A program made the translations under genes and the position numbers. The notes beneath the pieces are model-generated. The model did not search any database, was not told the origin of the DNA, and saw only the letters and a list, made by a program, of their open reading frames with translations. A DNA stretch of 32,000 nt from Opitutales bacterium. GTDB lineage: Bacteria > Verrucomicrobiota > Verrucomicrobiia > Opitutales > PNEW01. The stretch's first letter is position 1. Every line of letters begins with the position of its first letter. The stretch is taken from assembly GCA_965219535.1 (NCBI GenBank), contig CBDCNV010000002.1, positions 1 to 32,000 on the forward strand. The letters run 5' to 3'. Shown here piece by piece: positions 1,521 to 26,361 of the stretch.

Positions 1521-1523
1521 CCT

Positions 1524-5971: not shown

Positions 5972-5982
5972 AACGAAATTCC

Positions 5983-6984
5983 CTAATTATCTAGTAACTG
6001 GTTTGTTACTCTGACTATCCCCTCCACATTGGGTATCGTCTGATCTTCTAAAATCGGAGAAAAGGGAACGGGAACATCCATCGCGCCCATTCTATACACT
6101 GGAGAATCGAGATGATAAAATGCTTTCTCATTGATCACCGAAGCGACCTCCGCTGTTACCCCAAAACTTTGATAGCCCTCGTCTATAACGATACATCGTG
6201 AGGTCTTCATCGCCGATTCCACAAGCATATCCTCGTCGATAGGAGTTAAACTTCTCAAATCGATAACTTCAGCTGACACCCCCTCTTCGCCAAGTTTTAA
6301 CGCCGCTTCAAGAGCGACTAAAACCATGCTCGAAGTCGCAATTAAGGTAATATCATCCCCTTCACGCTTGAGATCAGCTTTTCCAAAGGGGATCGTGTAA
6401 TCCTCCTCAGGCTCGGGGACGAGACCTTTAATTTGATAGTTCATTTTGTCTTCAAAGAATATAACAGGGTTGTTATCGCGAATGGCCGTCTTAAGCATAC
6501 CTTTCGCATCGTAAGGAGTAGATGGCAGCATGACTTTAAGCCCGGGGATATGAGCGACCCAAGCCTGTAGGCTCTGTGAATGCTGTGCTGCCGCTCGCTT
6601 ACCCGCTCCCATGAGGGTCCGAATGACCAGAGGAACCTGGTAATTACCACCTGACATATAATGCGTTTTGGCCGCCTGATTAACCAAGGCGTCCATAACA
6701 AGCGTGAGGAAATCGCAAAACATGATTTCAACAATCGGCCGCAACCCGGTCATCGCCATGCCGACTCCAACTCCGGTTATTCCCGCCTCTGATATCGGTG
6801 TATCCAGTATCCGTTCAGGACCAAATTTGCTGAGAACACCGTCGGTTACTTTAAAAACACCTTGGGCATTTGCCACATCTTCACCGATGAGAATTACCTT
6901 TTCATCGCGCTGCATCTCTTCGCAGATGGCTTCATTAATCGCCTGAATAATCGTGATCTCGCGTGTATTATTCTGCGTAGACAT
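5983..6984 (-). CDS. acoB: TPP-dependent dehydrogenase E1 beta subunit
   Basis: 333 aa. GEDV...GVFKVT, DTPISE, transketolase-like pyrimidine-binding and C-terminal domains. Overlaps E1 alpha by 17 nt. Confidence 0.9.
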   Translation of the reverse strand: MSTQNNTREITIIQAINEAICEEMQRDEKVILIGEDVANAQGVFKVTDGVLSKFGPERILDTPISEAGITGVGVGMAMTGLRPIVEIMFCDFLTLVMDALVNQAAKTHYMSGGNYQVPLVIRTLMGAGKRAAAQHSQSLQAWVAHIPGLKVMLPSTPYDAKGMLKTAIRDNNPVIFFEDKMNYQIKGLVPEPEEDYTIPFGKADLKREGDDITLIATSSMVLVALEAALKLGEEGVSAEVIDLRSLTPIDEDMLVESAMKTSRCIVIDEGYQSFGVTAEVASVINEKAFYHLDSPVYRMGAMDVPVPFSPILEDQTIPNVEGIVRVTNQLLDN

Positions 6985-7939
6985 GATCTGTTACGGCTTC
7001 AGGGTTTGGGTAGGCGGCTTGTTGGGCAATTTCTATTCCCTTCTCAATTTCTTGAGCAACTTCCCCTTGAATGTTATCACAATCACTCTCGGTTATGTCC
7101 TCCACCGTCGAAAGATGTTGTTTATAGTTGTCGATGGGATCGCGTTTTTCCCGCCATTCACTTTCTTCTTCACGGGTGCGGTAGGCGCGGTTTCGATCAC
7201 CCATTCCATGACCGTAATAGCGGTAAGTACTGAAGACGAGAAAACTCGGGCCCTCTCCTTTTCGCGCGAGTTCAACCGCTGAGGAGGTCGCTTCGTAGAC
7301 TGCCAAAACATTCATCCCATCTACAGTTACCGATGGAATACTATAGGCCTCGCCACGCATTTTTATCGTCCCCGCGGTTACCTGCCTCATGGGTGTGTAT
7401 TCACCGTACTGGTTATTTTCACAGGCGAATATTATAGGTAAATTCCAAATCGATGCCATGTTCATGGACTCAGCAAGGATTCCCTGGTTTAATGCACCAT
7501 CACCAAAAAAACTGACACTCACTCGATTATTTTTTTGTAATTTAGCGCTGAGTGCCGCGCCCGTGGCAATTGAGATTCCTCCTCCAACGATGCCATTAGC
7601 TCCAAGATTTCCGCTTTTCTGGTTGGCGATGTGCATGGAGCCCCCTTTTCCCTGGCAGTATCCATCCACTTTGCCGAATAATTCTGCGAACATCCGGCTC
7701 ACTTCTGCCCCCTTCGCCAGGCAGTGTCCATGCCCCCGGTGTGTGCTCGTTATATAGTCATCGGTATTTAAAGCTGCACAAACTCCAACCGGCACGGCTT
7801 CCTGTCCGACTGAAACATGCGCGATACCCGGGATCTGCGCTTTTTCAAATAACCGTAATACCTGCTCTTCAAACCCTCGCACCGTCATCATCTGACGGTA
7901 TAATTTTAAAAGAAAATCTCTCTCATATTCTCTGGTCAT
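6968..7939 (-). CDS. acoA: TPP-dependent dehydrogenase E1 alpha subunit (acetoin:acceptor oxidoreductase-like)
   Basis: 323 aa. ITSTHRGHGHCLAKG, GKGGSMHIA, GANGIVGGG and the TPP motif GDGALNQG...ENNQYG. As I recall them, these strings closely parallel AcoA proteins. Confidence 0.9.
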   Translation of the reverse strand: MTREYERDFLLKLYRQMMTVRGFEEQVLRLFEKAQIPGIAHVSVGQEAVPVGVCAALNTDDYITSTHRGHGHCLAKGAEVSRMFAELFGKVDGYCQGKGGSMHIANQKSGNLGANGIVGGGISIATGAALSAKLQKNNRVSVSFFGDGALNQGILAESMNMASIWNLPIIFACENNQYGEYTPMRQVTAGTIKMRGEAYSIPSVTVDGMNVLAVYEATSSAVELARKGEGPSFLVFSTYRYYGHGMGDRNRAYRTREEESEWREKRDPIDNYKQHLSTVEDITESDCDNIQGEVAQEIEKGIEIAQQAAYPNPEAVTDHVYAE

Positions 7940-8171
7940 GTGCTCAATCTAACAAAAATTCTTATCTTCTTAATTTCTCCTGATGTAAATTCAATTACTT
8001 ATAACGATCTCATTGCATTATCCTGCCAGCGACAAATCCACTGCAATTTCTTTTAACTTTTTTTTAACATTACAACTCTTGATTATTTTTACTAAATAAA
8101 TATCATAAATGTCGAAAATTTATATTATATACAGAAACTAATTACTCCTAATATTTCAATTCACCTTCAGA
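7940..8171. promoter_or_regulatory. AT-rich divergent intergenic region between the aco-like operon and the Fur-like gene (presumed promoters/operators)
   Basis: 232 nt, strongly AT-rich, flanked by divergent start codons. No specific -35/-10 or Fur-box could be assigned with confidence. Confidence 0.4.
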
Positions 8172-8570
8172 ATGCCTAATAAGACTTTACGCGCAACAAA
8201 ACAACGTCACGCCATTAGGAAAGCATTTGACGCGACAAACCGTCCGCTAGGGCCGAAAGAAATTTTGCAAATCGCTGGAAGATCGGTCCCGAATCTGGGA
8301 ATTGCCACTGTCTATCGCAATATCAAAGTGATGATCGATGAAGGGGAATTGGAAACTGTAGAACTCCCAGGTCAGGCAGCACGCTACCAGCCCCCTGCCG
8401 ATGAGAATCAGCAGCTTCTTATTTGCGAAAAAGATGATTCCGTATTCACGATTAATAAGGAAATTGATGGCTTCCATCCGGATCTACCTGACGGCTTTGT
8501 CTTAAAGCGCTATCAAATTATATATTACGGGGATTATCAGGAATCACCTGATGAGACTAATCGCAGGTAA
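8172..8570 (+). CDS. Fur-family-like transcriptional regulator with degenerate metal sites
   Basis: 132 aa. ATKQRHAIRKAF...GIATVYRNIKVMIDEGEL winged-helix typical of Fur. ENQQLLICEKDD sits where Fur has HHxHxxCxxC, and there is no C-terminal CxxC. Confidence 0.7.
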   Translation: MPNKTLRATKQRHAIRKAFDATNRPLGPKEILQIAGRSVPNLGIATVYRNIKVMIDEGELETVELPGQAARYQPPADENQQLLICEKDDSVFTINKEIDGFHPDLPDGFVLKRYQIIYYGDYQESPDETNRR

Positions 8571-8851
8571 ATAGTGGGGTGTTCCTATCAACGAAAATTT
8601 AAACCCGGTTCAGCGCATGTCCGTAAAAGAGTGCGATTATATTCATCACATTTCAATCTGCCTACTTTGCACGAGTAGAGGTCGGGTGTAAGCTTCACAT
8701 TTCTTTATACTCTTCTTTAGAATCGATCGTTCGCATGCTTGCGACTGTATCGCTCATCCTGATCTCGCATGTTGCTTTGATTACCTCATCATCCCTACTA
8801 AAACCGTTGACAAGAGTAGCGATTATTTTCCTTTGATTTGTGTTTGAATAA

Positions 8852-8929
8852 CGGGGCGTAGCACAGCCTGGTTAGTGCGCCTGCTTTGGGAGCAGGAGGT
8901 CGCTGGTTCGAATCCAGTCGCCCCGACCA
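8852..8929 (+). tRNA. tRNA-Pro (anticodon UGG), CCA encoded
   Basis: Hand-folded cloverleaf. Acceptor CGGGGCG/CGCCCCG, D arm GCAC-AGCCTGGTTA-GTGC, anticodon arm CCTGC-TTTGGGA-GCAGG (UGG), variable AGGTC, T arm GCTGG-TTCGAAT-CCAGT, A-CCA. 78 nt. Confidence 0.9.
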
Positions 8930-8949
8930 TTATCTATCGACATTTTTCT

Positions 8950-8977
8950 AAATTTGCTAATACTATTTAGCAAATTT
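8950..8977. promoter_or_regulatory. Perfect 11-bp inverted repeat (AAATTTGCTAA-N6-TTAGCAAATTT) between the tRNA and the integrase start
   Basis: Seen directly. It ends 8 nt before the int ATG (8986). Could be an operator for int or a weak tRNA terminator. Confidence 0.35.
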
Positions 8978-8985
8978 TAATTTAG

Positions 8986-10107
8986 ATGGCGAAACAGAGA
9001 TTTAAAATCACCGGGTTTATCAACCCTAGCGGGTCAGAAGTGTGGCGGTTATCAGGTACCCTAAACGGTAAGCAAATCCGAAAAAATTTCAAGTCCCGAA
9101 ACGATGCTGTCGCCGAGCGTCAAAAGTTATCAATACGCTATCTAAATGAACAGTCCGAAGGGCAGACCGTTTGGACAACACTGACCCACGGACAGAACAA
9201 AGAGGCCATTTCAGCTATTAATCTCCTCAACCAAGCCAAGGTCAATAAACCTCTCACCTTCGCTGTTAACTACTTTTTAGCACATTATAAAGAAGCTGCT
9301 GAGACAATGACTGTCGAAGAGGCCGTCCGGGAGTATTGCGATCATAAATCGAAAGAATTAGAGCGCGGAATCATATCCTATCGCCAGGAGCACGCTATTA
9401 CCTTGGAGATGAAAAAATTAAAACGCTATTTCCCGGGACGGATCGTGAATGAAATTCAAGCTGAAGAGCTTAATGCTTACCTCGACACACGACACGGTCG
9501 ATCAAAAGCAACGCTCTCCCTTAAAAGCTGGAATAACTACCGTGGATACTTAAGTACCTTTTTTAAGTACTGCGTATCGAAAAAATATGTTGGAGAAAAT
9601 CCGATCCTGGAAGTTCCCCAGTATAAAATAAAGCAACGCAGGGGTACAGCGGAGATTCTCTCTGCAAATGAAGCAGCCGATCTGATGGAATGGCTGGAAA
9701 CTTATCGAGGCAAGCAGAACAGGGACGGATCCTGGTGGGGAGAACCCGGCTGCATGGTCCCCTATTTCTCATTAGCCCTGTTTGCAGGAATCAGACCCGA
9801 CTGGAAGCACGGTGAAATGAGCAAACTCAAACCAAAGCACATCCATACGGACACCGGGGTTATTCTTATCGAACCGGATGTTTCTAAAGTTAATGATAAA
9901 CGTGCCATTAAAATCCAACCCAACTTAAGCCTCTGGCTTGAGAAGTATCTTCCTGCCCGCAACCCCATCATCCCAACAAGAAGGTTCAGAGACATGTGGG
10001 TCCATGTCCGAAAAGAGCGCAAACTATCTCATAATGTCCTTCGGCATACCTATATATCGATGACGGTGGGGTTGATCGGACCCCGTTTTTCGTACCAATT
10101 TAAGTGA
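8986..10107 (+). pseudogene. int: Tyrosine recombinase / phage-type integrase, 3'-truncated by IS-A (native sequence ends at 10072)
   Basis: Located immediately 3' of the tRNA. FAGIRP (box I Arg) and NVLRHTYIS (HxxR region) are present. The reading frame enters the IS at 10073 before the catalytic Tyr region, and the last 11 codons are IS-derived. Confidence 0.8.
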
Positions 10108-11065
10108 GAGAGTTACCGGGTGTTAATGGTTCTAGGATTGATGTATATGAGAGATCTTGGCGAAGTGAGGGCGTAGCCCGAACGCGGCCAAGATCGGAAA
10201 GGAATCTGACAAACTCTTGTGGGCTTTTGAAGCCTAAACGACTGTGGGGATGTTCATGGTTATAGGTCTGACGCCATTGTTCGATTACCACTTGCGCTTC
10301 AGCCACGCTGAGCAACACTTCACGGTTCAAACACTCATCGCGTAAGCGGTTGTGAAACGACTCGATGAAACCGTTTTGCCAGGGACTGCCCGGATCGATA
10401 TAGATCGCCTTTATGTTATTACCGGACAACCACTGCTGCACTTGATGAGCAATGAACTCACTGCCGTTGTCACTACGGATATAGCTGGGAGGTCCCTCCT
10501 CTTCAATGGCCTCGCTAAGCACAGAGAGGACATCGGTTGAGGTGAGTTGACGAGCGACCCGGATATCCAGGCATTTACGCGTATATGTCTTCGCTTCGCT
10601 TGAGTGTCGTCGCTTTCAGCTCCTCGGTACATCGATTAGAGTCATCATCTTTAATGGACCGCCGTTGTCTGTACGATCATGGACAAAGTCCCAGGACCAA
10701 ACGTGATTGCGACCCTTTGCTTTAGTAGGTGACCCCGTAGAGACTCCTTGACGGTGTCTGCCCTTTTTCGGGGGCTTTACCTGCAGCCCTTCTGAACGTC
10801 GTACCGCCTGGACAAACTTCCTGCTTGTTGTCCAGCCTTCCTTTACCAGCAAGGCACGGATGCGCCGGTAACCGTAGCGGGGATGTTTCCAGGACAAGCT
10901 CACAATCCGCTCGACCAACCGCTGAGCTTTCTCACTGGCCTGTTTGGGCCGGTAACTGAACGTTGACCAACTCAGGCTGAGATAAGCACAAGCCCTCCGC
11001 AACGAGCACAACCCTTTCTCAGCCGCAGCTTTTACTACTCGTTTCTTCTGCTTTGGGCTCACCAT
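10100..11065 (-). pseudogene. IS-A orfB (DDE/rve integrase-core transposase), interrupted by a 42-nt in-frame insertion carrying TGA
   Basis: The two track ORFs (10616-11065 and 10100-10522) are in the same frame, separated by a TGA at 10616-10618. SDNGSEFIA and PHSRLGFKSP are rve-core motifs. There are 14 extra codons between LID and YTRKC relative to IS-B1 (VVDQYTRAC). Confidence 0.8.
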
Positions 11066-11071
11066 TTTTTT
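11065..11071 (-). promoter_or_regulatory. A7 slippery run (putative programmed -1 frameshift site) of IS-A
   Basis: T7 on the plus strand, at the orfA/orfB junction. IS3-family elements use A-rich heptamers for OrfAB fusion. Confidence 0.55.
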
Positions 11072-11139
11072 GACAGCGTTTCCTCCATTACCTGATTCTT
11101 GAGCATTTGATCTGCGAGCAGCTTCTTCAGCTCGGTATG

Positions 11140-11166
11140 TCAGGCCTTCTCGCTTGCGCTCGTGAA
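11140..11166 (-). repeat. 27-nt mini-insertion (plus strand TCAGGCCTTCTC-GCTTGCG-CTCGTGAA) in IS-A orfA
   Basis: Shares both arms with the 28-nt insert at 30500-30527. Ends in an in-frame TGA on the coding strand. Confidence 0.75.
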
Positions 11167-11352
11167 TTCTTTTTCCAGCTCTTTAAATCGCTTCGCATCG
11201 GCAAGTTCTAAATTGCCATATTTTTTACGCCAGCGATAGAAAGTCTGTTCGCTCAGGTTGTTTCCACGGCAGATTTCCTGTACCGTTTTACCGGTATCGG
11301 CTTGCCGCAATATTGTTATAATCTGTTCTGTTGTGTATCTTTTTCTTTTCAT
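11140..11352 (-). pseudogene. IS-A orfA (HTH transposase N-terminal protein), prematurely terminated by a 27-nt insertion
   Basis: MKRKRYTTEQIITILRQ...LSEQTFYRWRKKYG is a classic IS3 OrfA. Removing nt 11140-11166 restores ...ELEKEHTELKKLLADQMLKNQVMEETLSKK, which runs into the slippery site. Confidence 0.8.
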
Positions 11353-11394
11353 TGAGGTTATCTGTTTATCCCGATAACCTCTCTCTGTAAATGA

Positions 11395-12038
<644 letters not shown>

Positions 12039-12039
<1 letters not shown>

Positions 12040-12440
12040 TGGCGAAGCGAAAGCACTCGATCGATAAAGTGAGAGCGTCACGTGACGGCCACGAATACCA
12101 TGAGACGTGGACAGCCCGAAAGGCCATGCAACTCCTATGGCCGGACAGCGACCTTGCCGCAATAGCAGTCGAAGGTCTTTCTCCAACTGATCAAAAACAT
12201 GTTTCTGTACAAACAGTTGAAATCGCGGACATCACTCTCTACTACGGAGGTGGGTCTACCTTTGAGCAAGCCTCGCGGACGAGCATTGCTCAGTTTAAGT
12301 ATTCATTGTCCGACAATGACTTTCGTGCCAGCCATGCCAAGAAAACGATTCAAAAGTTTGCAGAAACCTACCGGGAATACAAGAGGAGATACGGCCCTCA
12401 AGCCGTGCACGATAGACTAGATTTTCAACTCATTACAAAT
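12039..12440 (+). other. Putative nuclease effector domain (aa 1-134) of the giant ORF
   Basis: E45 (12171-12173), D64 (12228-12230) and QFK (12291-12299) in alternating hydrophobic strands, followed by LDFQLITNRP. The order matches a restriction-endonuclease-like fold. This is motif-level evidence only. Confidence 0.55.
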
Positions 12441-15400
12441 CGTCCGATTTATGAGTCGCTACACCGAGCGATAGAAAGCATTGCATGCAGCTTACCGCGA
12501 ACTGGCAAAGTTGAAAAGCAAGCGAGACAGTTTAAGACTGCTACTGGCCTTAATGGGAAACCACTCGCTGCCTTTGCTGCAAAGTGCAAGTTCATCGGTT
12601 TCTCGGGGAGCCTTAGGTCAACCAAGAATGAACTCGCAGGCATGCTTGTTGACTGGTCTGCAACCAGTGACCCTATAGCGGTTGCGCGCCTCGGCCAGTT
12701 AAGAAATTTGGTTCGAGAAAAGGCTGGCTCTGCTAGCACCAATCAGAACCTCATCACCCGCACTGACATCCTTGCGGCGCTGCAAATCGGCGACCCCAAA
12801 AATCTTTTACCATGTGCGCCCGCACTCGCAGATGTAGGAAAAATCGTTGAGCGCGAACAACTCGCCGAAGCAATTGACCTGATTCCGGCCCTCTCGGCAC
12901 CTCTTCTTGTTCATGCGGCTGGCGGGGTAGGTAAAACTGTTTTCATGGGCAGTCTTGCAGAAAAAATAAGTGCCAATTACGAGGTTGTTTTCTTTGATTG
13001 CTTTGGCGGCGGTGCCTATCGCTCGTCCGAGGATGAACGGCATTTACCGAGGAGGGGGCTAATTCACATCGCGAACACGCTTGCAGTTCACGGTTTGTGT
13101 GACCTCATACTACCCAATAGCCCTAGTGTAGGAGAGCTGCTTCGAACTTTCAGACGGCGCCTCATCCAGTGTGTCAAGACTCTTTCCAGAATGGGATCCA
13201 GTCGAGAACTGGTAATATTCATTGATGCCATAGATAACGCGAATATAGCGGCGCTACGATACAATGATGACGCTTTTCCAGTCAAACTGCTAGAGAGCTT
13301 AAGCACCAAACCTGTCCCCGGTGTGAAACTCATTATTTCATGCCGGACGGAACGCAAACCTGAGACTTGCGCGAAGTACGACGAGTTAGAACTGCGCTCT
13401 TTCAGTATGGATGAAACGTCGTCTTTTCTGCGTGCTAGACTGAAAGACATTTCGCAGGCGAAGATCAGTGTTGCTCAGGCGCGCTCAGATGGCAATCCGC
13501 GCGTACTCGAACACCTTCTCACTAGCGGCCGTGGTCTTCTTGACGAGTCAGAGATCGATAAAAAGATTGGGCTGGACGAACTCATCCAAGAGAGGATGAT
13601 AAATGCTCTCGAGACAGCTCTCGAGCGTGGTTCAGAACAAAGCGATATTAATACTTTTCTGGCAGGACTTGCTGTCCTGCCGCCCCCCGTGCCGCTTGAT
13701 GAGTATGCTGTAGCTTGTGGCGTAGAACTTAGCGCAATCCAAAGCTTTGCGTCGGATCTGGCACCACTACTGGAACTTACCAATCACGGATTGATGTTTA
13801 AGGATGAACCTACGGAGACACTAGTTCGCAATCGGTACGCCTCGTCAACGGATGCCCTGCGCCGTGTCGCCAAGAACCTGCTCGTACGCCAGGATGTCTC
13901 TGTTTATGCTGCTCGCGCTATACCGGGCCTCTTGCATGAACTTGATGATGGCGAACGGCTTTTCAAGCTTGCTTTCGATGACCGCATCCCCGCAGCAATA
14001 ACAAGTACGGTTGGCAAAAGACACATACGGTATGCGAGGCTTAAGGCCGCCACCCTACATGCTGCGATTAACCAGAAATACAACCTTATGGTTCAGCTAT
14101 TGGTCGAGTTGTCCACGATCGCCGCAACCGATCAACGCGGGACCGATTACATTCTGGATCATCCCGACCTTGTCGTGGCTGCAAAGGATGTTGATGCCAC
14201 GCGCCGCCTTTTTGAAACACGTACTGGCTGGCCAGGGACGCGTCATGCCAGGTTAACGATAGCCAATACGCTCTCGGGCGAATACGAAGAGGCGAACCGC
14301 CATGCATTAAAAACCATAGAGTGGATCGACCACCTTATACGAATCAATTTCGATGATAAAATGGATGAACCTGGTCCGGAGCGTCCCGATATCGCGGCTA
14401 TACTTTTCTTCCGTATCTCCCAGGGTTGCGAGAAAGAGGCTGCACATTGCCTGAAAGACTGGCAAGACTGGTATGTCTACGAGGTTTTCGAATATGTGTT
14501 CGACTATTCGTGCCTCAAGCAGTCGATACGATCACAGCCACCACGTAGGCTCGAAAGCTTTGTAAGCACACTGGAGGCCATCGGTCCTCTGACAGCAGCC
14601 CTTTCTTTCCAAGAGCTTCCAAGATTAAAAAGCAAAAAACTCATCAGAAGGCTTGCCAAGCTCTGTAAAAAGACGTCTAAACTCGATCTATCGGAATCCT
14701 ATCAACGTGATAAGACATACCGGCTTGAAGACGGATTGCGCAAAGCGGCAGCGGTGGCCTTGTCGCTTGGTCTTGACGACGAAGCACAGGCAATCTCGCT
14801 ACGTGCGCCGCATCAGCGCCCAGCCATATGGTCCTTCCACGACGATTTTTATGTCAGGGATGTGTTCCCATTCGTGTTTCGAACCGCCCTTGTCGCCGCC
14901 GCCAATAAGTCAACACTTCACGAGACGGACGTACTCCCCGAGGATCTGGTTCCAATTTGTTCCCGTATTAGTAAGGATCTGAATGGCAAAGCGTTTCGAG
15001 ACAAGGCAGAGCAACGGCTATCCGAGCACATTCCCGGGGCACGGAATGAAGACGAGTCCACAAAGCGCTCCCACACACTGAGCTACGAGGATAGACGCGT
15101 TGCCGAACGATTTATCACTAATCGTCTGGAGCCATTTCTTTCACTGACGAAAGCGCTCTCAGCCGTTCTCGCAGCGCCTACGCGCAGCATAGATAAAGCT
15201 TTCATAAGATTGCTCAAAATCTGGGAGGACGCGTGCAAAAACCGCAATCGCTACCGAAGCGACGAGATTGACCATTTCTTCAGTGAGCTCGGCTTCGATT
15301 CGGTACTATTCGCCCTCTGGGCACGCAGCGAACTCGAACACGCATCGGTCAAACGTTTCCTTAAAACAGTTCATGGCCAGGATATTAGCGCGCACAACCT

Positions 15401-18400
15401 CGTGCGGATCGTTTCGATCTTAGCAAAGCGACAATCTTTACAGGAACTTGCAGGTGAACAGGCTATAAAAGCTCGCGCGCTCATCGAAGCCGAGAACGAT
15501 GTCACTTACCGGGCATCTCAGTTTGGCGCTCTCGGGCGAGCCATGCTTCCGGCAAGCATTGATGAAGCATCGGTCTATTTTCGCGATGGGCTCGAACAAA
15601 TGGATGCCATTGGGTCCGGCGACGATCTGTTCACCAACGAACTTCTCCTTTTTGCGTCCAAGATAAAAGGGGAGGAACTCGACGAGCGCGACTTTCACAC
15701 CCTGACGAATATTTGTGAACTCAATATGGGTGAGGAGCCAGAGAAGTTTTTCTGGGACGGTTTCGGCCCTGCGCTTTCCAAAGTGGCCGGCCCAAGAGGT
15801 CTGGCAAAACTCAGTCGCTGGGATGACCGCTCTAAGATATCCTTAAGCAATACCTTGCTCCCGTATCTTACGGCACTTGTTGAAGACGGAAAGATCGAAC
15901 CTAAAGACGCGCTGGCTCTCAACCGCCTAGCAATCCCCACTGAATATCTTTACTCTGGCACCAAAGAATTTGCGCAAACGATCCGAAAACAGGCCGGCCC
16001 CGATCCTGGGATTACAACCGAACTCATTCAGCAGTTCGAGGATCATAACCCCGGCATTGCAGACAACAGCACAATTGAGGTGCTCGCCTCATTTGCCGAA
16101 GAAGCTCTAGGATCATCATCAAATACTTCCAATACAGCAGCCTATCTTTCAGCAGCCCGTGTACGATTTTCTACAGTCCTTGAGAGCCGCAACAATCAGA
16201 AAAACTATAGTGAAAGACCAGATGCGCGGTGGCGTAAGAGAGCGGTAGCTATCAATCGCCAGAATCGTGCAGCCGTTGATCGCATTGTTACTTCCACAGA
16301 CCCTACGGATGAGAACTCCCTCCTAAAAGCGATCAATGACTTCAACAGCTTGCAGGATACTTATGATCTGAAGGGTGGCTTCTTCGCTTCACTTCGAGGC
16401 AAGATGCCTTTTGGTGCCCGTGCACAATATGTTCGGGTCATATGCTTGCTAGAGAAATTTTCTTTATCCTGGAAACTTGAAGAGCTAAAAGTGTGTAAAC
16501 AAAGTTGGGGAAATTCATCTGCTTCGCTTGGGCCAGTTTACAAGGATCAAGCCATTCCCCTTATTCAGCTTCATGCTAAGGACATAGTTGATGGCAGTTG
16601 GCTATCACGTTCTCACCTCAAAGAAATAACCGATCTTACAGGCGTTCCTGTCGCTGAACTTGTGCTTGAACTCATCAAAGTCATTGTTCGGCAGGATAGT
16701 TCTGTCACGGGCGCCGTCTGGCTCGCTTGTGCCGCACCTATTTGTTCGCAAGCAGACGATGGGCAAGGTCAACTTGCCCTCAAACGATTGCTTAGCAGCA
16801 ATGCTGCCACACTTGCAGATAACGTTGTGGACGGGATCTGGATGGACGGACGCTATCCAAAGGACGATGTTCCAGCGATCGCTGCCGGGCTCGTTTGGCG
16901 CATGCTTGGTTCCCCCTACGCCGAAAACAGGTGGCGTGCAGCCCACAGTATTCGGTGCTACGCGAGATTCGGATGTTGGGAGACAGTTGATTCCCTGGTC
17001 GACCATCTCAACGAGAAAACGGCAGGGCCTTTCCAGGCCTCCGAACTCACTTTTTACTACCTGCATGCCAGGCTTTGGCTTCTTATTGCGCTCGCGAGGA
17101 CGGCATTAGACCACCCAGAAAAAATCGCGACCTACAAGGATGAACTCCTTACTATTGTTACAGAAGACGCCACCCCGCATGTTCTAATGAGCCACTTTGC
17201 CACGCGCACATTGCTGACCTGTATCGATGCCGGAAAACTCGACTTGGAGGCGGGTGTCACACAGCGCTTGCGAAACGCCGACCTCTCGCCGCATCCAAGC
17301 TCAAAAGAAAAGATCAGAACTGGTGGTAATTTCTATCAGAGGCGTCCGGACTCCACACCCAAACCGAATTTTGAGTTTCATCTTGATATCGATTTTCGTG
17401 ATCACGACGTGTGCAATTTGGGCCGTATCTATGGTAAGTCGGGCTGGTATGTCGCTGACATGATGTCTGCGATCGTTCAGCAGCTTGATCCGAGCGTTTC
17501 CAGCATGTATGAATCAGGTGGTCGAGAGTCCCTTTACAGACAAACAACTCTCAGGATCAGCACGCATTATCACACACACGGTCAGCAGCTTGGTTGGCAT
17601 GCGCTTTTTTTCGCCGCGGGCAAGCTTCTTGCTGAGTTTCCTGTTACAGAAGATTGGTGGAACGAAATCGAGTGGCTTGGGCGCTATACTCTCACCCGAG
17701 ATGATGGATTGTGGCTTTCCGACGGTATAGACAGATCGCCATTTGATACGGCCATAACCCTTCTTGAAATGAAAAAAAGTGATCTTGTGGTCACCGGTGA
17801 CCGAGATAAGATTCTACAACTTGCTGGACTCACGTCTCGCGTCGGCAAAGAGCTAGTTGTCGAGGGGACATGGTTCTCTTCCGACAATATCAGTGTTAAC
17901 ATCTCGTCCGCCTTGGTTCCGCCCACAAAATCAGCAAAGCTCGCGTTGAAGCTTACTCGCGAACACCCATTGAACAACTTGATTCGAGTCTTTCATCAGA
18001 CAGATAAAGATTCAGAATACCTAAGTGGCGAAATGAATGAATTCACCCCCTGGATCGTCTGTCCGTTCGGTGAGGTCCTGCTTGACAAGCACGATCCCTA
18101 CGGTGTGTCTTTCGCTAATCTCAGGCCTTTTATCGCGAGTGATTTTGCCGCCTTTTTTACCATTACCAGTAGTGATCCGTTCCACCGAACCTGGCATGAC
18201 AAGCGCAGTAAACAGGTGATGCGATCACAAGCCTGGGGCTGTGAAAGCATAGACAGTGAAGAGAGGCCACATTCTGGACGGCGCCTTTATTGCACGTCAT
18301 CAATGCTTAAAAAGATACTTGCAAAATACGACAAAGACCTACTACTGCTTATTAAACTGAAACGGTACGAGAAAGAGTCATTTCGTGGGAATGGGAAATT

Positions 18401-18494
18401 TACTCATACCGTGGCAGTTGTCCAGATCACCAAAACGCTCGGCCTTAAATATTTCAAAGGCCGCATTAATTACATTTACAAGTCCCAATATTAA
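12039..18494 (+). CDS. Giant (2151 aa) multidomain protein: N-terminal PD-(D/E)xK (Cap4/DUF4297-like) nuclease, STAND-type P-loop NTPase, long helical-repeat C-terminal region. Candidate Avs-like antiviral STAND protein.
   Basis: Uninterrupted 6456-nt ORF whose ATG overlaps the hsdM stop (TAATG). Motifs: GHEYHE, E45, D64, Q85-x-K87; Walker A GGVGKT (12921-12938); Walker B LVIFIDAID (13209-13235); LIISCRTE; DGNPRVLEHL. Confidence here is for the CDS being real. The functional call is about 0.6. Confidence 0.9.
12891..13538 (+). other. STAND-type NTPase module (aa 285-500) of the giant ORF
   Basis: Walker A AAGGVGKT, Walker B hhhhDAxD, sensor-like R436 in ISCRTE, LELRSFSMDE, GNP(R)VL motif. 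Confidence 0.8.
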
Positions 18495-18791
18495 GCACGC
18501 TCAATCTTCTTCGTTGCGATCATGTTCGTCATGGTAAAGATGACGGCGGTGGCTGGCACGACGATGTCGAAACAGGAAAACATTCAATGTCTCGAGAATA
18601 TGTGTGGTTGTTCGAATGAAATCGTTGTGGCGCTGGGTATACTCCGGTCAGCGCACTATTGGTATCTGAATAGCAACAAGAGTAATGCTTTTAAGGCTGG
18701 TATCGTCCTTAAGCAAGTGGCTTTTGAACATTTGGGCGGTATAATGTTCCCATGTAAATCTTATATGAAACTGAAATTTACCGCTTGTCGC

Positions 18792-18934
18792 TGAACGGAC
18801 CCCGTTATTCGGATCTGTTTAAGTGAGAGAGCTTCCGGGTGTTAAAGGTTTTAGGATTGATGCATATGAGAGATTTTAGCTTAAGTGGGGGCACAGCCCG
18901 AACACAGCCAAGAGGGGAAGGGAATACTCTTGAG
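18792..18934 (-). mobile_element. Remnant of a second IS-A-like copy (orfB-proximal terminal repeat plus about 90 nt), same orientation as 10073-10210
   Basis: TGAACGGACCCCGTTATTCGGATCTGTTTAAGTGAGAGAGCTTCCGGGTGTTAAAGG... aligns by eye with 10073-10210 at roughly 80% identity. Degenerate orfA-like codons (QIITILR) lie at about 19080-19110 on the minus strand. Confidence 0.7.
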
Positions 18935-19501
18935 AACGAGGCGATGCCTGAGCATCTCCCTCGGTTGAGACCTTTGGGTAGACACCGGACTGTTGAGTGA
19001 GGTAAGCGGGAACATTTCGAACTTTGTTCTTCTGCTCCAGCACCTCGATGTCACCTGTGATGACTACACCGATGTCCATCTATCGCAGAATAGTGATGAT
19101 CTGCGTAAGTGTGCTAACTGCTACGTTGGGTCTGAAGGAGCCCTAAATCCTAGGGTCTAACAGTCCATTTGACACCCCACAGCAAGGCTGGCACGCTGCC
19201 TAGACAGCCTCTGGACATATTGTTGCTTCGCAACTGCATTACACAGTTCCTTATGACAGATTCCTATTTAAAGACATGGACACGTACAGTAGGTTCTCGA
19301 GCATCCAATGCCCGGGCGTTGGCCAAAAGGCGGGGCGTTATTTTTGCACGCTAGATTGATGTTGGCGCCATCAATGTTATCATTTTTTCTAGCACTAACT
19401 CTGGTGAAAAGTAGACGACTAAAAAAGAGGAGGGAGAATCGACACGCTTCTGTTCTTATCTGTTTGCTCATCGTTGTTATCAGTGCTCGTATTATCGTGA
19501 T

Positions 19502-19551
19502 GTTGTCAACCATTCCAGCTCGGTGATCCGTTGACTCGAATGGTTGACAAC
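19502..19551. repeat. Perfect 14-bp inverted repeat GTTGTCAACCATTC-N22-GAATGGTTGACAAC
   Basis: Arms at 19502-19515 and 19538-19551. The loop contains a further GTTGAC. It overlaps the start of repeat family copy A. Confidence 0.8.
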
Positions 19552-19630
19552 TTGGGGCAATTTAACTGGTAACATAAAAAGGAATAAGACCGTTATCAGC
19601 CCGTACCCTTAAGACACAAAAAGAGGGGTG
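19530..19630 (+). repeat. Dispersed non-coding repeat, copy A (GTTGACTCGAAT...CTGGTAACATAAAAAG.A.A.AGACCGTTAT...ACACAAA.A.AGGGTG)
   Basis: Aligns by eye with 20928-21017 (copy B). The 3' module is also present at 20782-20822 (copy C). Confidence 0.7.
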
Positions 19631-20781
19631 GATAATTAAACAAGAGAATAAGATCGACACTGATTAACGCAGCTGCGTTTCTTCGGGGGTGATGCTGTGG
19701 ACCGCCTTTTTTAAAACAGGCGATTGTGTTCCAGTATATAACGTGCGCAGAATGGCTCAAGGATTCGTTTTGACGGTCGGCCAATAGAAAGGGAGTATCA
19801 GTTTTTTAACCAGTAGATAAGTTTTGAAAATTATGAGTTTTCACCGTGCGGATTTTGAGCCATACCCTTTCATAGTGAAAGCGAGACCAAAACTCAAGTG
19901 TGCCCTGGTGTTTGAAAAGGGCGAGCAGAAAAAATTACACCGTAAGTATAAGTCAGAGCAGAAATTTACATGCTCTAGCGGGGGTAAGGGAGAAACCTCG
20001 CGGGTAAGGAAATTTTTCCACGCTATTTGCGATTTAATCCTGCGGTGATCGGGGTCCTGAGATGTGCACCAATTCGAGAGAGGTTGTACGTAGGCACCGT
20101 TGTTTTTATCCTAATGCCTGATAACGACCGATAATCGTGTTAAATCGGTAGCGTTCTCTACAAAAGGGGTAAGTTGGAAAGAAGTTGTATAGGCCAGCCC
20201 CTAAACGCGAATTCTAGGGCATTCTGCGGCATTTTCAAACCAAACACAATTGCCCTTTTGAAAAGGTAATATTTCGCTGTTGGGGTGAATCAGTAAGGGC
20301 ATCGATGCGGGTAAAGTCACGCGGGAGTTAAATTTTCACTTCCATTTTGTTTGTTATTTTCCAGAATCGGATTGCCAAACACGGCACAAACAAGAGACGC
20401 GGCCAGCGAAGTCTTTGACAGCCCAAGGCGATCAAAATGGGGTTTAATCGCGTCCTTGCAGAAAAAAAATTTAGGACAGCATTAATTTCTATTGCTCTGT
20501 CTTGATTCGGCATTCTCTTTCCCTTCGCGGGTTAGCGAGAGTAAGAATTTTATCTGATCGCTGATTGCGTAATCTATCTGATTGTTCAACTCGTTCAAAT
20601 GCTTAATCGCTCGCCGGTTTAACAGGCCGCCTCTTTCTTTTTCGATGTCTGCTATCTTCCGCCATACTTCGATTCTTGTAATGTTCATAGCGAATGTCCA
20701 TCCGCGCTTAAACCCTCTACACCTCTAGGCTATTATGTTTAGATTCATGGTAATCTCGGTTATATATTTCTGCATACTGCC

Positions 20782-20822
20782 GATCTCTATCCGTGAACGC
20801 AAAGCACAAACAGAGGGTGCCC
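20782..20822 (+). repeat. Dispersed non-coding repeat, partial copy C (…CCGTGAACGCAAAGCACAAACAGAGGGTGCCC)
   Basis: Matches the 3' module of copy B (GTCCATGACCGCAAAACACAAACAAAGGGTGCCC). Confidence 0.65.
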
Positions 20823-20927
20823 TTTTAGGGTGAGTCAACCACGATGAAGGTGAGAATTCGGGGGGGTGGGTTTTCGCGGCAAATTCACATTACCGTTCAA
20901 TATATAATACATTTTTGCGGACTCTTA

Positions 20928-21017
20928 GTTGACTCGAATCGCACTTTGACTGGTAACATAAAAAGAGAGATAGACCGTTATTTGTCCATGACCGCAAAAC
21001 ACAAACAAAGGGTGCCC
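20928..21017 (+). repeat. Dispersed non-coding repeat, copy B
   Basis: GTTGACTCGAATCGCACTTTGACTGGTAACATAAAAAGAGAGATAGACCGTTATTTGTCCATGACCGCAAAACACAAACAAAGGGTGCCC. Shares both modules with copy A. Confidence 0.7.
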
Positions 21018-21345
21018 AAACGGGGAAGTCAGATCCACGGCGAGGGTGTTACTGAAACTGAACCGCACAACCGCCATTATGTCCAGTATGTTTTTAAGTA
21101 ATTGATTAACAACATATTAATTTTACACACAAAATACCTAACGGTCTTAAAACGACATGAACTAAGGAGTAGCCCTTAATTTTATCCCCTAGTTTCAGTC
21201 GAGATCATACCCTCATTGTGACAATAAAAAGCTGTCCCGATAGAGGGTGTTGTGCAAGTTCAGTCCTGCACGAAGCCCCGAGTCCGTGCATCATAACGAT
21301 TCATCCGCCTGGGGTTCGTTCCGCATTGCCCGTTCCGTCTTTGAA

Positions 21346-21420
21346 GGTCAACGAGTCCCCCAGTCAACGAGTCCCCAGTCAACTAGCTTCCCAGTCAACC
21401 AGTCCCCAGTCAACCGAGCC
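21346..21420 (+). repeat. Five tandem 13-16-nt direct repeats, core AGTCAAC(N)AGTCCCC (iteron-like)
   Basis: GGTCAACGAGTCCCCC / AGTCAACGAGTCCCC / AGTCAACTAGCTTCCC / AGTCAACCAGTCCCC / AGTCAACCGAGCC, contiguous. No credible coding context. Confidence 0.85.
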
Positions 21421-21874
21421 GGAGCGGTATACAGAACGAGCATAACCATGTAACGTAAAGCAAAGGGAGGCGGGGGGGTGCCGCCGCCGAAGGCGGTCGA
21501 CCCTGATCTATCGGTCTGCGACGCAAAAAATATTTTTACAAAAGGGAACGTTTAACAGCAAAATAATTAAAAACGAACACCTCTTAATTTGCCCTAGAAC
21601 GCTTATCACCTAAAACCTTACCTTGATTGACATGCAACGCCCTTTCTCAAGGCGCTCAGGCACCTTGAAGAGCTTGAATGGCGGCACAACAAACCGCGAC
21701 AATCCCCACATCTTCCCCGATACGTTGTGTCGGATCATGAATACGGGCAAACTAACTTATCAGTGACTGGTCAAAGTCTCGTGATACCCTGAAAGAATAT
21801 TGGAGCAGTAGCATTACTCGGAACTTCCTCCATCGCAACTTTAGGCATAATATTCCTTGCCGTTTGCAGGTCAG

Positions 21875-22036
21875 CTGTTTGAGAGTATGTGGACAGTTTT
21901 TTAAAATATCGGTGCCAGATTTCTCGCTTATCGAGGAGTTCAGTGTTGAATTGTTCCAAACTGGGAAAATCGATACCGAACTTTCTAAGTGTGGCGAGGA
22001 GGTCAGTGATCTTAAGGTAATCGTCGGGCCTGAGTC
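21875..22036. repeat. Repeat D, long copy (D1)
   Basis: CTGTTTGAGAGTATGTGGACAGTTTTTTAAAATATCGGTGCCAGATTTCTCGCTTATCGAGGAG...TCAGTGATCTTAAGGTAATCGTCGGGCCTGAGTC. On the minus strand it encodes the tail of a decayed ORF (…DDYLKITDLLATLRKFGIDFPSLEQFNTELLDKREIWHRYFKKL…). Confidence 0.8.
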
Positions 22037-22322
22037 ACCATCATGAGCAATAATTATGAAGTCCCTGGTAAATCCGCCTGTATTGGGTGTCCATATAAAA
22101 ATGATAATTCCTGGCGAGAAATAAAGAAACGACCTAAAGAATGGGCGGATGCGGTTGAGATAGACGACGCAATCCGCAACGGCCGGCGTCAGGGGAACCA
22201 CTCAGAAATTGTATTTACATAAGAGCTTTACCCCGCTAAGGGATGTTGATTTATCAACTGATGCCGACAGGAGCCAGTTGGATATGTTTGAAAATGAGTG
22301 CGATGGATATTGCGGAGTATAA
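22034..22322 (+). pseudogene. C-terminal remnant of a phage/plasmid-type PAPS-reductase-like protein, frameshifted
   Basis: Frame 1 gives ...CIGCPYKNDNSWREIKKRPKEWADAVEIDDAIRNG... up to the TAA at 22220. Frame 2 from about 22206 gives KLYLHKSFTPLRDVDLSTDADRSQLDMFENECDGYCGV*. As I recall it, the ...LH.S..PL..VDL....Q.DMF.NEC.G.CGV tail is characteristic of that family. The N-terminal catalytic part is missing. Confidence 0.5.
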
Positions 22323-22341
22323 TTTCCCATTTCAAAAAACA

Positions 22342-22695
22342 ATGCAGGTATTAAGTAAAGAGATCGACGATAAATATAAAGAGGCTATTTACAAGAAGCG
22401 CCAGAAATGCTACGATGAGCTTTCCGCGATCATGTTTGGGCAAAGATTTGAATGCACTTTCATACATGCCTACACAGGAGAAATTATAGTAAAACCTAAA
22501 ATGAGAATAGGAGTGAGATTTATTAGAATGATAGTTGCTCATTTGGAGGCAGTCGAAATATTCGTGCCTTTGGGGAGTAAAGAAAAACATGTTTATAATC
22601 GTATTATGAGTGTCATTAAATTGAACCGGACGAATTTTAAAATTCTCAGAGCAAATAGAGACTCTGAAATTAAGCTGTATGCCTTTAACAGCTAA
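22342..22695 (+). CDS. Hypothetical protein (117 aa from the internal ATG; the track ORF starts at 22243 but that part overlaps the remnant above)
   Basis: AT-rich ORF MQVLSKEIDDKYKEAIYKKRQKCYDEL... with no recognisable motif. Confidence 0.3.
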   Translation: MQVLSKEIDDKYKEAIYKKRQKCYDELSAIMFGQRFECTFIHAYTGEIIVKPKMRIGVRFIRMIVAHLEAVEIFVPLGSKEKHVYNRIMSVIKLNRTNFKILRANRDSEIKLYAFNS

Positions 22696-22775
22696 GCTTG
22701 TAAAACCCTATTACAAGAATCATCCGATCCTGAAACCGCCGACAAAGGCTCAGGCTAAATGGATGATTGAGTCAC

Positions 22776-22874
22776 CTGTTTGAGAGTATGTGGACAATTT
22801 TTTAAAATATCGGTGCCAGATTTCTCGCTTATCGAGGAGATCAGTGATCTTAAGGTAATCGTCGGGCTTGAGTC
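22776..22874. repeat. Repeat D, short copy (D2), lacking 63 bp present in D1
   Basis: Near-identical to D1 on both sides of the deletion. The deletion end points coincide with a duplicated CGAGGAG heptamer in D1 (21932-21938 and 21995-22001). Confidence 0.8.
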
Positions 22875-23099
22875 GCATCCTGGACCGAGCATCATAACGA
22901 TCCATCCATCTGCTGCATGGTCTCCTTTATAGGTTAGATAAGACTTGGGGATTATATACTTCAAACCGCATAGAGCAAAACAGCCTACGCCATGGCAGGA
23001 CTCTCAATTGTTCCCTTGTAGAGTTTATGAGACCCTTTCGTGTCATCCCCCCACAAGGCAACCGCTCATACTATGTGTTCTGCGCGAGCTTTGCCCGCC

Positions 23100-24083
23100 C
23101 TACGGACTCTCCTCCATATCCTCCAGATAATAGCCGGCGCCGATCAGAATCGGCAGTCCAAAGGACACGATCCGCTTGACGAATGCCACCTTGCGCCCCT
23201 CCATTCCACTCGATGGATTGCGCTTCGTGTAATACAGGAAACTCTCTCCGAAGGCGTCCGCTACGCTCACAAGATCCTGGTCTTCGACCGGTCCTACCAA
23301 CTCGGACATTATATCATCCGGCTCGCTGTATGAATCGCCACTGAACAGCGTGTAGCCATAAGTATCGATGGCAAACAAGTAGATTGATCCGTGTTTCCAT
23401 CGCGGGTCCGTGGTTAAAGTGTTGATCGCAAAGTAGCCTTTCATTTCAAGTTCCATCGCAGCGCAATGGACAAACTCCTTTAACCTCTCGTTGGAAGGAT
23501 CACTATCGAGCAACATGGCATTGACCTCTTGACTCCAGCACGTGCCCGGAATGTCGCGCTGGTAGATCCCCGCGCCAATTGCGGCCGGAGTCCCGTTCCA
23601 GTCGATGCTCCTGACGTAGGAAGCCTTCGGCTCCTCCCTGTCCGTCGCTGGATTTGTAATGGAGTAGTAGATCCAGCTCTCCTCGACGATGCTCATGATA
23701 CGATATAGTTCCCTGAAGTAGTCGTTGCCGAAGGAGTCGACAAACAGTCCCCACGGTTTCCCTTCCCTTGAAGGATCGGGCGGGTAGACGATCGCTCGAG
23801 CCATATCGGTCATTGATGTCACTTCGTCGACAAAGACATAAAACTGACCGCTGTTCCAACGCTCGTCTTCGTGAAAAGCCCTGCGTGCCTCACTGAAGCC
23901 CTTTGCACGGGCATACTCGTAGGCGCACTGAACGAACGCCTCTATGTCCTCCGGTGTGCGCACCGCACTGGCTACGATGGAGTGATCAGAGCAAGACACA
24001 GCTTCTTGAGCGCCAAACATCGGCAGCACAGCGAACATGGAGATTAAGGGAATCAGCAATGGATAGAAATGGTGTTTCATCAT
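23100..24083 (-). CDS. Secreted/periplasmic protein with two tandem single-Cache (sCache_2-like) domains, paralog 1
   Basis: 327 aa. Signal peptide MMKHHFYPLLIPLISMFAVLPMFGA. Two repeats of the pattern A..F..D.RW..G..Y.F..D......PPDP...G.....D..G......W.YY...NP......K..Y......IGAG.Y. No TM or output domain. Confidence 0.8.
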   Translation of the reverse strand: MMKHHFYPLLIPLISMFAVLPMFGAQEAVSCSDHSIVASAVRTPEDIEAFVQCAYEYARAKGFSEARRAFHEDERWNSGQFYVFVDEVTSMTDMARAIVYPPDPSREGKPWGLFVDSFGNDYFRELYRIMSIVEESWIYYSITNPATDREEPKASYVRSIDWNGTPAAIGAGIYQRDIPGTCWSQEVNAMLLDSDPSNERLKEFVHCAAMELEMKGYFAINTLTTDPRWKHGSIYLFAIDTYGYTLFSGDSYSEPDDIMSELVGPVEDQDLVSVADAFGESFLYYTKRNPSSGMEGRKVAFVKRIVSFGLPILIGAGYYLEDMEESP

Positions 24084-25446: not shown

Positions 25447-26361
25447 TCAGTTTGAAATTCTTTTCTTATAAGGCCCTCTGGGATTTGTTTTTGATTCCGA
25501 ATCCTCGATTAGATCGATAATATCAAAGACATCCCAAAGCCTATGTGTTAATCCCGCTTCCATCGCGGGAGATACACGCAAGGTCTTGTGTAGCCTACAA
25601 AAATTGTAAAATACGGTATAAAGGGAGCATGAATAAAGGTGGTTTTCTAACTTCTTGGAAAAGGCGTTTGTCAGCCGAGTAAAACGCCTCATTGACATTC
25701 TCATGGTGAGGTTGTGACGTTCGACGTGCGAAGTGCTGATTGATTTCTTTTTTGGATTCCCGTTGATGTTGTTTTTTACCGAGCTTTTGAATATCGGCGG
25801 GCTGTATCGCTTAGTCTTATGGTAGTCCTCACCGTAGACCTTTACTAGTTGGGCGTAATCGACATCACCGCCAAATGCTTCTTCTACGGCATCCAGGTAG
25901 ACCCGATAACCATCAGTGGTTAGTTGGACTCGATTTGCAAGGCGTCCTTTCAGATCATGCATAAACTCGTAGGCAGTCGACGCTGTCCGATCACCTATCT
26001 GATAGGAGATGATTAACTTGCTATCGCTGTCTAGGGCTGTCCAAGTCCAAACATCACCAGACCCTTCTGGTGCCGCTTTTGACTGTTTAACATTCTTTTC
26101 CTTTGCATAGCAGAAAGACCATATTTCGTCACATTGGACACGCTGTGCTTTGACATTACGAACTGCCTTGTCGTGGAATTCAACACAAGCCTTACCAGCA
26201 TCAACCAGTAGCTTGGCAACGGTATTAGTTGATACATCAACAGTGCGAGCGATTGCTCTTTGTGACATCCCCTCAACCAGAAGGGAAAGGATCATTGCTT
26301 GTTTCTCTCTTGGCAGCTTATTCATACTGACTAAAATGACATAAATGCCTAGCATAGTCAA
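25447..26361 (-). CDS. IS1-family-like single-ORF transposase (probable start at 26325, MNKLPREKQ...)
   Basis: N-terminal HTH (GMSQRAIARTVDVSTNTVAKLL), DEIWSFCYAKEKN, WTWTALDSDSKLII, TTDGYRVY, HVERHNLTMRMSMRRFTRLTNAFSKK. The motif order is as in IS1-type DDE transposases. Element ends not resolved, though GGTAGTGAC abuts the stop at 25438-25446. Confidence 0.7.
   Translation of the reverse strand: MTMLGIYVILVSMNKLPREKQAMILSLLVEGMSQRAIARTVDVSTNTVAKLLVDAGKACVEFHDKAVRNVKAQRVQCDEIWSFCYAKEKNVKQSKAAPEGSGDVWTWTALDSDSKLIISYQIGDRTASTAYEFMHDLKGRLANRVQLTTDGYRVYLDAVEEAFGGDVDYAQLVKVYGEDYHKTKRYSPPIFKSSVKNNINGNPKKKSISTSHVERHNLTMRMSMRRFTRLTNAFSKKLENHLYSCSLYTVFYNFCRLHKTLRVSPAMEAGLTHRLWDVFDIIDLIEDSESKTNPRGPYKKRISN

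Follow-up and report, generated by a model that had tools for sequence, protein, structure and literature searches.

What kind of protein is encoded by a single uninterrupted frame of 2151 amino acids (aa) that starts within the last codon of a broken restriction-modification gene? The question is raised by a stretch of 32,000 nucleotides (nt) from an Opitutales bacterium (GenBank assembly GCA_965219535.1, contig CBDCNV010000002.1, positions 1 to 32,000), hereafter the window, in which an open reading frame (ORF) occupies positions 12039..18494 of the forward strand. A first-pass annotation, made from the sequence alone, had described the product as a single-gene Avs-type protein composed of a Cap4-like nuclease with a QxK motif, a STAND NTPase and a helical sensor. 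The profile and structure searches reported here agree with that layout, and they take the assignment further: the protein almost certainly belongs to the known Avs3 family (AVAST type 3). The gene is called avs3 below.

The frame itself is sound. It opens with ATG, is intact over 6.45 kb, as first annotated, and is full-length by comparison with its homologues; at the base composition of the window, the probability of 2151 codons without a stop is about 1e-47. When the motif positions were re-derived, each motif on which the first-pass annotation had relied was recovered in its place. In the N-terminal part these are GHEYHE (aa 17-22), E45 (nt 12171-12173), D64 (12228-12230), Q85-F-K87 (12291-12299) and LDFQLITNRP (aa 127-136). 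They are followed by a Walker A motif, GGVGKT (12921-12938, containing K299), a Walker B motif, LVIFIDAID (13209-13235, containing D396), and downstream of Walker B by LIISCRTE, LELRSFSMDE and DGNPRVLEHL, further STAND motifs. Much further along, the stretch ENRWRAAHSIRCYARFG occupies aa 1629-1645 (about 16923-16973). In an alignment of 28 sequences, comprising relatives 58-80% identical, the residues E45, D64, Q85, K87, G295, G296, G298, K299, T300 and D396 are invariant, as are R1631, W1632 and H1636 within the ENRWRAAHSIRCYARFG stretch; because of this invariance, the motifs are not chance patterns.

Family membership was examined with the standard hidden Markov models for defence genes. 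The PADLOC profile PDLC02167 (Avs3a) matched with an E-value of 9.5e-209 and 694 bits, aligning aa 10-919 with profile positions 6-915 and adding a second stretch, and the NCBIfam equivalog model NF041816, also Avs3a, scored 771.7 bits. When both collections were scanned to E = 1, Avs3a was the only Avs family returned and bNACHT gave no match; the remaining matches, to Mad ATPases, were marginal. Among sequences in the PDB there was a single match, SeAvs3 of Salmonella enterica (8DGC chain A, 2092 aa), with an E-value of 2e-129 that improved to 2.8e-182 when a clade profile was used. The match to SeAvs3 consists of three colinear stretches, the first pairing aa 11-809 with 7-811, and extends from the nuclease through the C-terminal domain. 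The first-pass annotation had raised the possibility of a new clade or a new specificity; none is evident, since the standard defence models already give Avs3a. The gene is already detectable by PADLOC and is no new clade of STAND systems.

Structure models led to the same protein. AlphaFold2 models of two halves (aa 1-1000 and aa 960-2151) were built from the alignment of 28 sequences and compared with the PDB using Foldseek. The N-terminal half matched 8DGC first (E 8e-35), followed by 6MFV, Avs4 and CED-4 and then by Cap4-type nucleases. The C-terminal half also matched 8DGC first (E 7e-22), and the next matches were generic alpha-solenoids, importins and CRM1, at about 1e-3.

Some of these results weigh against the assignment and need to be set beside it. 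The NCBIfam score, at about 772 bits, falls far short of the equivalog cut-off of 2800 bits. The models are of moderate quality, with predicted local distance difference test (pLDDT) scores of 71.5 for aa 1-1000 and 67.3 for aa 960-2151 and predicted template modelling (pTM) scores of 0.37-0.42, and the global template modelling (TM) scores to 8DGC are low, at 0.17-0.35. Being below the cut-off, the protein would not be named Avs3a by the NCBI pipeline, which fits the generic names carried by its homologues in their source databases ('NACHT domain-containing', 'ATP-binding', 'transcriptional regulator'). As judged by its sequence, we regard it as a divergent subfamily member of Avs3 and not as an equivalog of the seed sequences of NF041816. 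The low TM-scores we attribute to poor packing between domains and to setting an apo-like model against a tetramer with bound ligand; the significance of the Foldseek matches is carried by the local match of the structural alphabet. Apart from the NCBIfam cut-off and the terminase-ATP contacts considered below, every comparison of sequence or structure that could be made with the Avs3 family placed the protein within it.

The individual modules can be followed along the gene. A Cap4-like (DUF4297-type) PD-(D/E)xK nuclease domain covers about aa 1-230 (12039..12728). In the PDB sequence search E45, D64 and QFK align residue for residue with E, D and QLK of SeAvs3, and over aa ~1-230 the N-terminal model matched the Cap4-type nuclease structures 6WAN and 6VM6 (Cap4), 9C1M (HerA-DUF4297) and 9NXX (LmuA) with Foldseek E-values of 2e-4 to 2e-3. 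The Pfam scan of the avs3 product returned no nuclease family at E <= 1, so it is the SeAvs3 alignment and the fold matches that identify the nuclease. On the same alignments, E45, D64, Q85 and K87 are the candidate catalytic residues. The STAND NTPase module follows at about aa 270-600 (12846..13838). Pfam recognised NACHT at aa 291-468, a borderline match (E 2e-6; score 28.1 bits, cut-off 26.7); both Walker motifs, invariant among the relatives, also align with those of SeAvs3, and the N-terminal model matched the STAND structures 6MFV (STAND-TPR), 8DGF (Avs4) and 2A5Y (CED-4). Both folds that the first-pass annotation had read from short motifs, an endonuclease and a STAND ATPase, are thus found in the aa 1-1000 model.

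A STAND NTPase need not serve in defence; it could instead be a signalling protein or a regulator, and the generic names of the homologues, one of them 'transcriptional regulator', would suit such a role. We consider this extremely improbable. The nuclease head, with its invariant candidate catalytic residues, argues against it, as does homology over the full length to a protein, SeAvs3, that is anti-phage by experiment. The relatives occur in restriction-modification (R-M) and mobile-element contexts across many phyla, and the Pfam scan of the avs3 product found no DNA-binding regulator domain.

Comparison with described systems places the protein closest to SeAvs3. The order of parts is identical (Cap4-like nuclease, STAND NTPase, TPR-like sensor, C-terminal sensor domain), SeAvs3 is the top structural match of both halves, and the sizes are alike. 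The first-pass annotation had placed the protein near the top of the size range, which is uninformative, as SeAvs3 has 2092 aa against 2151 here and full-length relatives have about 2120-2215 aa. The two differ in sequence, with 18-25% identity in the Foldseek structure alignments and 18-19% in the sensor half, and in their surroundings, the window protein falling in a clade of environmental, mostly uncultured bacteria that is tied to type I R-M operons. Avs1 likewise responds to the large terminase, and a structure close to that of Avs3 is predicted for it (PMC13601566); it differs in that no Avs1 profile matched the window protein in the PADLOC and NCBIfam scans to E = 1. Avs7 and Avs4 are STAND sensors of capsid and portal proteins with Cap4 or Mrr nucleases, in which binding of a phage structural protein to the TPR sensor is followed by tetramerisation of the ATP-bound NTPase and activation of the N-terminal nuclease (PMC13581612). 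They share this activation logic with Avs3 and differ from it in their sensors. Avs4 (8DGF) matched the N-terminal model solely through the NTPase, at E 3e-6 as against 8e-35 for Avs3, and was absent from the 50 matches listed for the model of the sensor half. Cap4 (the CBASS effector), HerA-DUF4297 and LmuA share the nuclease fold of aa ~1-230; their activation comes from cyclic oligonucleotides or partner ATPases and not from a fused STAND sensor.

The sensor, which the first-pass annotation had been unable to assign, proved to be that of Avs3, homologous to and colinear with its counterpart in SeAvs3. It comprises a long helical (TPR-like) part at about aa 601-1937 (13839..17849) and a C-terminal beta-rich domain at about aa 1938-2151 (17850..18491), the counterpart of the Avs3 C-terminal sensor. 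From aa 601 to about 1930 the models of both halves are entirely helical, and from about aa 1938 to 2143 the model is beta-rich, which accounts for the remark in the first-pass annotation that the last ~300 aa deviate in composition. The C-terminal third is the best-conserved part of the sensor, with aa 1589-2115 matching SeAvs3 1527-2051 at E 1e-38, and aa 1113-1294 give a colinear sequence match to SeAvs3 1072-1257.

What the sensor recognises is best approached through SeAvs3. The C-terminal sensor of SeAvs3 and EcAvs2 binds the ATPase domain of the terminase (PMC13601566), and in SeAvs3 the terminase-bound ATP is contacted by Y1714 and by the loop that carries H1770, a residue indispensable for immunity (bioRxiv 10.64898/2026.08.25.746987). 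In the HMMER alignment Y1714 corresponds to H1789 of the window protein (17403-17405) and H1770 to H1847 (17577-17579). SeAvs3 has 9 residues more in the loop ahead of the conserved LGWHA motif, and because loop lengths differ the equivalence of H1770 and H1847 is probable, not certain. We examined the two columns in 75 sequences, namely 74 full-length family representatives (25-49% identical to the sensor half of the window protein), each reduced to its C-terminal ~680 residues, and aa 1501-2151 of the window protein. The Y1714 column holds Tyr in 40 of the 75 and His in six, the window protein being one of the latter. The H1770 column is aromatic throughout (Y 63, W 8, H 2, F 2), and the window protein has His, as does SeAvs3. 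Given these compositions, the positions of the terminase-ATP pocket appear conserved across the family, with an aromatic or imidazole side chain retained.

SeAvs3 binds the large terminase together with its ATP; the ATP-bound NTPase then tetramerises, the Cap4 nuclease forms a tetramer and double-stranded DNA is degraded non-specifically (PMC13601566, PMC11564622, PMC13581612). For the window protein this mechanism is the best supported, because all of its parts are present and conserved, and we think it likely that the whole of it, terminase trigger included, applies. By this analogy the protein would be monomeric at rest. On infection by a tailed phage, aa ~600-2151 would clamp the large terminase subunit with its bound ATP, and the STAND NTPase, through K299 and D396, would bind ATP and drive tetramerisation. 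The Cap4-like nuclease domains, with E45, D64, Q85 and K87, would then assemble and cleave double-stranded DNA indiscriminately, so that phage replication would be halted at the cost of the infected cell (abortive infection).

Several features of the sensor leave room for a different trigger, with the downstream STAND and nuclease steps unchanged: an Avs3-like layout might respond to a phage protein other than terminase, or to the terminases of unusual phages. The terminase trigger is carried over from a protein of just 18-25% identity. When aa 801-1600 were searched alone, the middle of the sensor (aa ~810-1590) matched SeAvs3 by sequence in one weak stretch (E 0.003), and the structure search was needed to link that region; the ATP-contacting Tyr of SeAvs3 is His at H1789. 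Homologues of Avs2 are able to respond to phage proteins of more than one kind (PMC11564622, PMC13601566), and other families that join Cap4 to STAND sense capsid or other proteins (PMC13581612). Even so, we judge a different trigger unlikely. The part of the sensor that binds the terminase ATPase in SeAvs3 is the very part that is best conserved, the H1770 column is aromatic in all representatives, and the relatives form a continuum of 25-49% identity with constant length and layout. SeAvs3, moreover, recognises terminases less than 10% identical to each other (PMC13601566). A SeAvs3-like response to terminase thus remains our preferred reading of the window protein.

The family to which the protein belongs is large. 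More than 1000 relatives were found, of which the best 120 are about 2150 aa long, 58-80% identical to the window protein and aligned over the entire query (100%). Their sources are metagenome-assembled genomes spread over many phyla; Marinimicrobium, Arenicellales, Desulfobulbaceae, Planctomycetota, Blastocatellia and Bacteriovoracales are among the genomes that bear a name. Searching exhaustively with the sensor half gave 1360 cluster representatives, 439 of them at E <= 1e-30. Full-length members are uniformly 2120-2215 aa long, with the sensor in a constant position, and the architecture of the family is accordingly fixed. These relatives, more than 1000 of them generically named in public data, can be labelled as Avs3-type defence proteins. 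Avs3-type sensing thus reaches far beyond the enterobacteria, into many uncultured phyla, with uniform size and layout; the current understanding of Avs proteins is unchanged by the window avs3. One more distant relative, of 2151 aa and 40% identity, was found on a contig classed as viral (IMG/VR contig IMGVR_UViG_3300011567_000004). Its neighbours are a tyrosine integrase, KfrA and a Rep (REP_ORF2-G2P) protein, so it is carried on a small integrative mobile element.

Selection on the gene was estimated from the ratio of non-synonymous to synonymous substitution rates (dN/dS). For avs3 the ratio is 0.34 against the closest relative, locus L001, and 0.21-0.24 against loci L002 and L003; for the adjacent fragment of hsdM, the methyltransferase gene described below, it is 0.11. 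The gene has therefore been under purifying selection, though looser than that on the hsdM fragment.

The surroundings of avs3 bear on both its history and its present state. Directly upstream, at 11418..12039 (+), lies the 3' remnant (the last ~40%) of hsdM, encoding the methyltransferase of a type I R-M system. The remnant matches positions 166-276 of 311 in the Pfam N6_Mtase profile and 289-480 of 487 in the PADLOC MTase_I profile, and with the intact HsdM of L001 it shares 92% identity over aa 289-497. Its TAA stop (12037-12039) overlaps the ATG of avs3 (12039-12041) in the sequence TAATG, which is intact in the window and points to ancestral co-transcription and translational coupling. 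In L001, whose Avs3 protein is 80% identical and whose DNA is 86% identical over window positions 11418-18790, hsdR, a 164-aa ORF, hsdS, hsdM and avs3 all point the same way, hsdM and avs3 are joined by the same stop/start overlap, and a Cache-domain gene comes next, as in the window. The window avs3 originally closed an hsdR-hsdS-hsdM-avs3 operon, and it now lies in a decayed island beside a tRNA-Pro gene.

The association with R-M genes, which the first-pass annotation had cited for tripartite effector-STAND-sensor proteins in general, recurs among the relatives. Of 14 loci compared (the window and L001-L013), six have type I R-M genes no farther than 10 kb from avs3, namely the window (a remnant only), L001, L002, L003, L004 and L006. 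R-M genes are its commonest neighbour families, and SIR2, PIN and Eco29kI genes are also found nearby; this association with defence islands is a qualitative one. In the window and L001, avs3 stands behind hsdM with the stop/start overlap, and in L006 it lies inside an R-M locus. Such positions resemble those of other defence genes that lie inside type I R-M operons, as in VPI-2 of Vibrio cholerae (PMC11411939). L002 and L003 differ, in that their R-M genes are convergent neighbours in a separate operon.

In addition to these separate, convergent and intact type I R-M systems, L002 and L003 have decayed 3' pieces of hsdM directly upstream of avs3 (7661-8000 in L002, about 7900-8000 in L003). 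Because these pieces are retained, the hsdM-avs3 junction is ancestral in this sub-lineage; the hsdM 3' stretch could have been kept since it carries the promoter of avs3. The R-M locus of L006 (Candidatus Azotimanducaceae), at 3173-19610, reads hsdR, hsdS, three small ORFs, a 37-aa 5' fragment of hsdM (9615-9725), avs3, a 400-aa ORF and a complete hsdM, which looks like the insertion of an avs3 cassette with a duplicated hsdM 5' end.

We know of no functional link between Avs3 and R-M systems. There is a small chance that the environmental clade has a trigger other than terminase, or that avs3 is functionally coupled to the type I R-M operon that it ends; if either were true, the window protein would represent a distinct functional subtype of Avs3. 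No conserved partner gene was found beside avs3 in the homologous loci compared, and the small ORFs adjoining it had no PADLOC or Pfam match. A second gene, 'Avs3B', a term absent from the papers searched, was considered and rejected, there being no conserved neighbour and no profile match. We treat avs3 as a single-gene system and its product, on the preferred reading, as a pattern-recognition system made of one protein.

The loss of the rest of the operon can be traced to an insertion sequence (IS) of the IS3 family at 10073..11417 on the reverse strand, identified by HTH_Tnp_1, HTH_21 and rve domains in three ORFs and by the alignment of its terminal inverted repeats. Its orfB is split in two ORFs, so the element is probably defective. 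One of its ends cuts the 3' end of an integrase-like ORF and the other cuts hsdM, and the element has removed the operon upstream of hsdM codon ~289; homology to L001 starts at 11418. The three-base flanks are unequal (GGT and GGC), a pattern that agrees better with a deletion brought about by the IS than with a simple insertion. The integrase-like ORF runs from 8986 to 10072 (+), where the IS truncates it; it has no Pfam match, and its label comes from recombinase-like motifs recognised by eye alone. It lies next to a tRNA-Pro(TGG) gene at 8852-8929 (+), identified by ARAGORN and Rfam, and the two together (8852..10072) are the insertion site of the island.

On the other side of avs3, a 134-bp remnant of a related IS3 end at 18792..18925 (+) is 83% identical to 10073-10205. 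Synteny with L001 stops at 18790, where this remnant starts. With IS sequence on both sides, hsdM' and avs3 might have formed a composite transposon. We rejected this, as the Cache-domain gene downstream is syntenic with that of L001, in which hsdM is intact; because of this syntenic flank, decay in place is likelier than transposition of a cassette.

Has avs3, then, fallen silent with its operon? The native operon promoter was lost to the IS, and the expression of avs3 in this genome is something that we infer. Upstream of the gene the promoter scan found one weak sigma-70-like site (11906-11934), inside the hsdM remnant, such sites occurring there at chance frequency. A defective IS3 cuts hsdM, the gene whose stop codon runs into the start of avs3, at codon ~289, and the island is crowded with IS copies and remnants beside a truncated integrase-like gene. 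A relic with an intact frame, lacking expression and contributing nothing to defence in this genome, would suit these facts, yet we consider it very unlikely. The 6.45-kb frame has neither stop nor frameshift and keeps all its catalytic residues, its dN/dS is below 1, and L002 and L003 keep avs3 with mere decayed hsdM remnants upstream, so the gene is maintainable without the operon. A working defence gene, presumably still expressed, is the reading that we retain. The locus illustrates how avs3 travels: as the closing gene of a type I R-M operon, outlasting the decay of R-M genes or their deletion by an IS.

The rest of the window falls into an ordinary left flank and a variable right part. 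The left flank (552-8570) is chromosomal, with genes for the E1 alpha, E1 beta and E2 components of an acetoin/2-oxoacid dehydrogenase, other dehydrogenases and a Fur-family regulator. The best named matches of E1 beta belong to Chloroflexota (Anaerolineae), at about 68-69% identity, and a metagenome protein matches it at 92%; judged by these matches alone, the host would probably be an uncultured bacterium, possibly one of the Chloroflexota. To the right of the IS3 remnant, about 4.2 kb (18926-23100) are absent from L001 and contain no ORF longer than 150 aa. The small ORFs of this stretch had no Pfam or PADLOC match, and it gave no Rfam match at E <= 0.1 and none to a plasmid collection; possibly it is decayed cargo of the island. 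Within it are a 76-nt repeat at 21870-21945 and 22771-22846 (96% identical), a 42-nt repeat at 21995 and 22833 and, at 21347-21424, a short tandem array whose 15-16-nt units resemble GTCAACGAGTCCCCA.

Two tandem paralogous Cache-domain genes follow on the reverse strand (23100-24083 and 24285-25343, about 84% identical in DNA), where L001 has a single copy; their products have hydrophobic N-termini resembling signal peptides. An IS1-like transposase ORF is located at 25447-26361. The next ORF, at 26379-27017, contains a perfect tandem duplication of 184 nt (26511-26694 and 26694-26877, 100% identical), which is either a recent event or an assembly artefact. Two further copies of IS3-family elements, 80% identical, stand head to tail at 28300-29498 and 29498-30628. 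The whole stretch from the tRNA-Pro gene to about 30.6 kb is rich in IS elements and variable.

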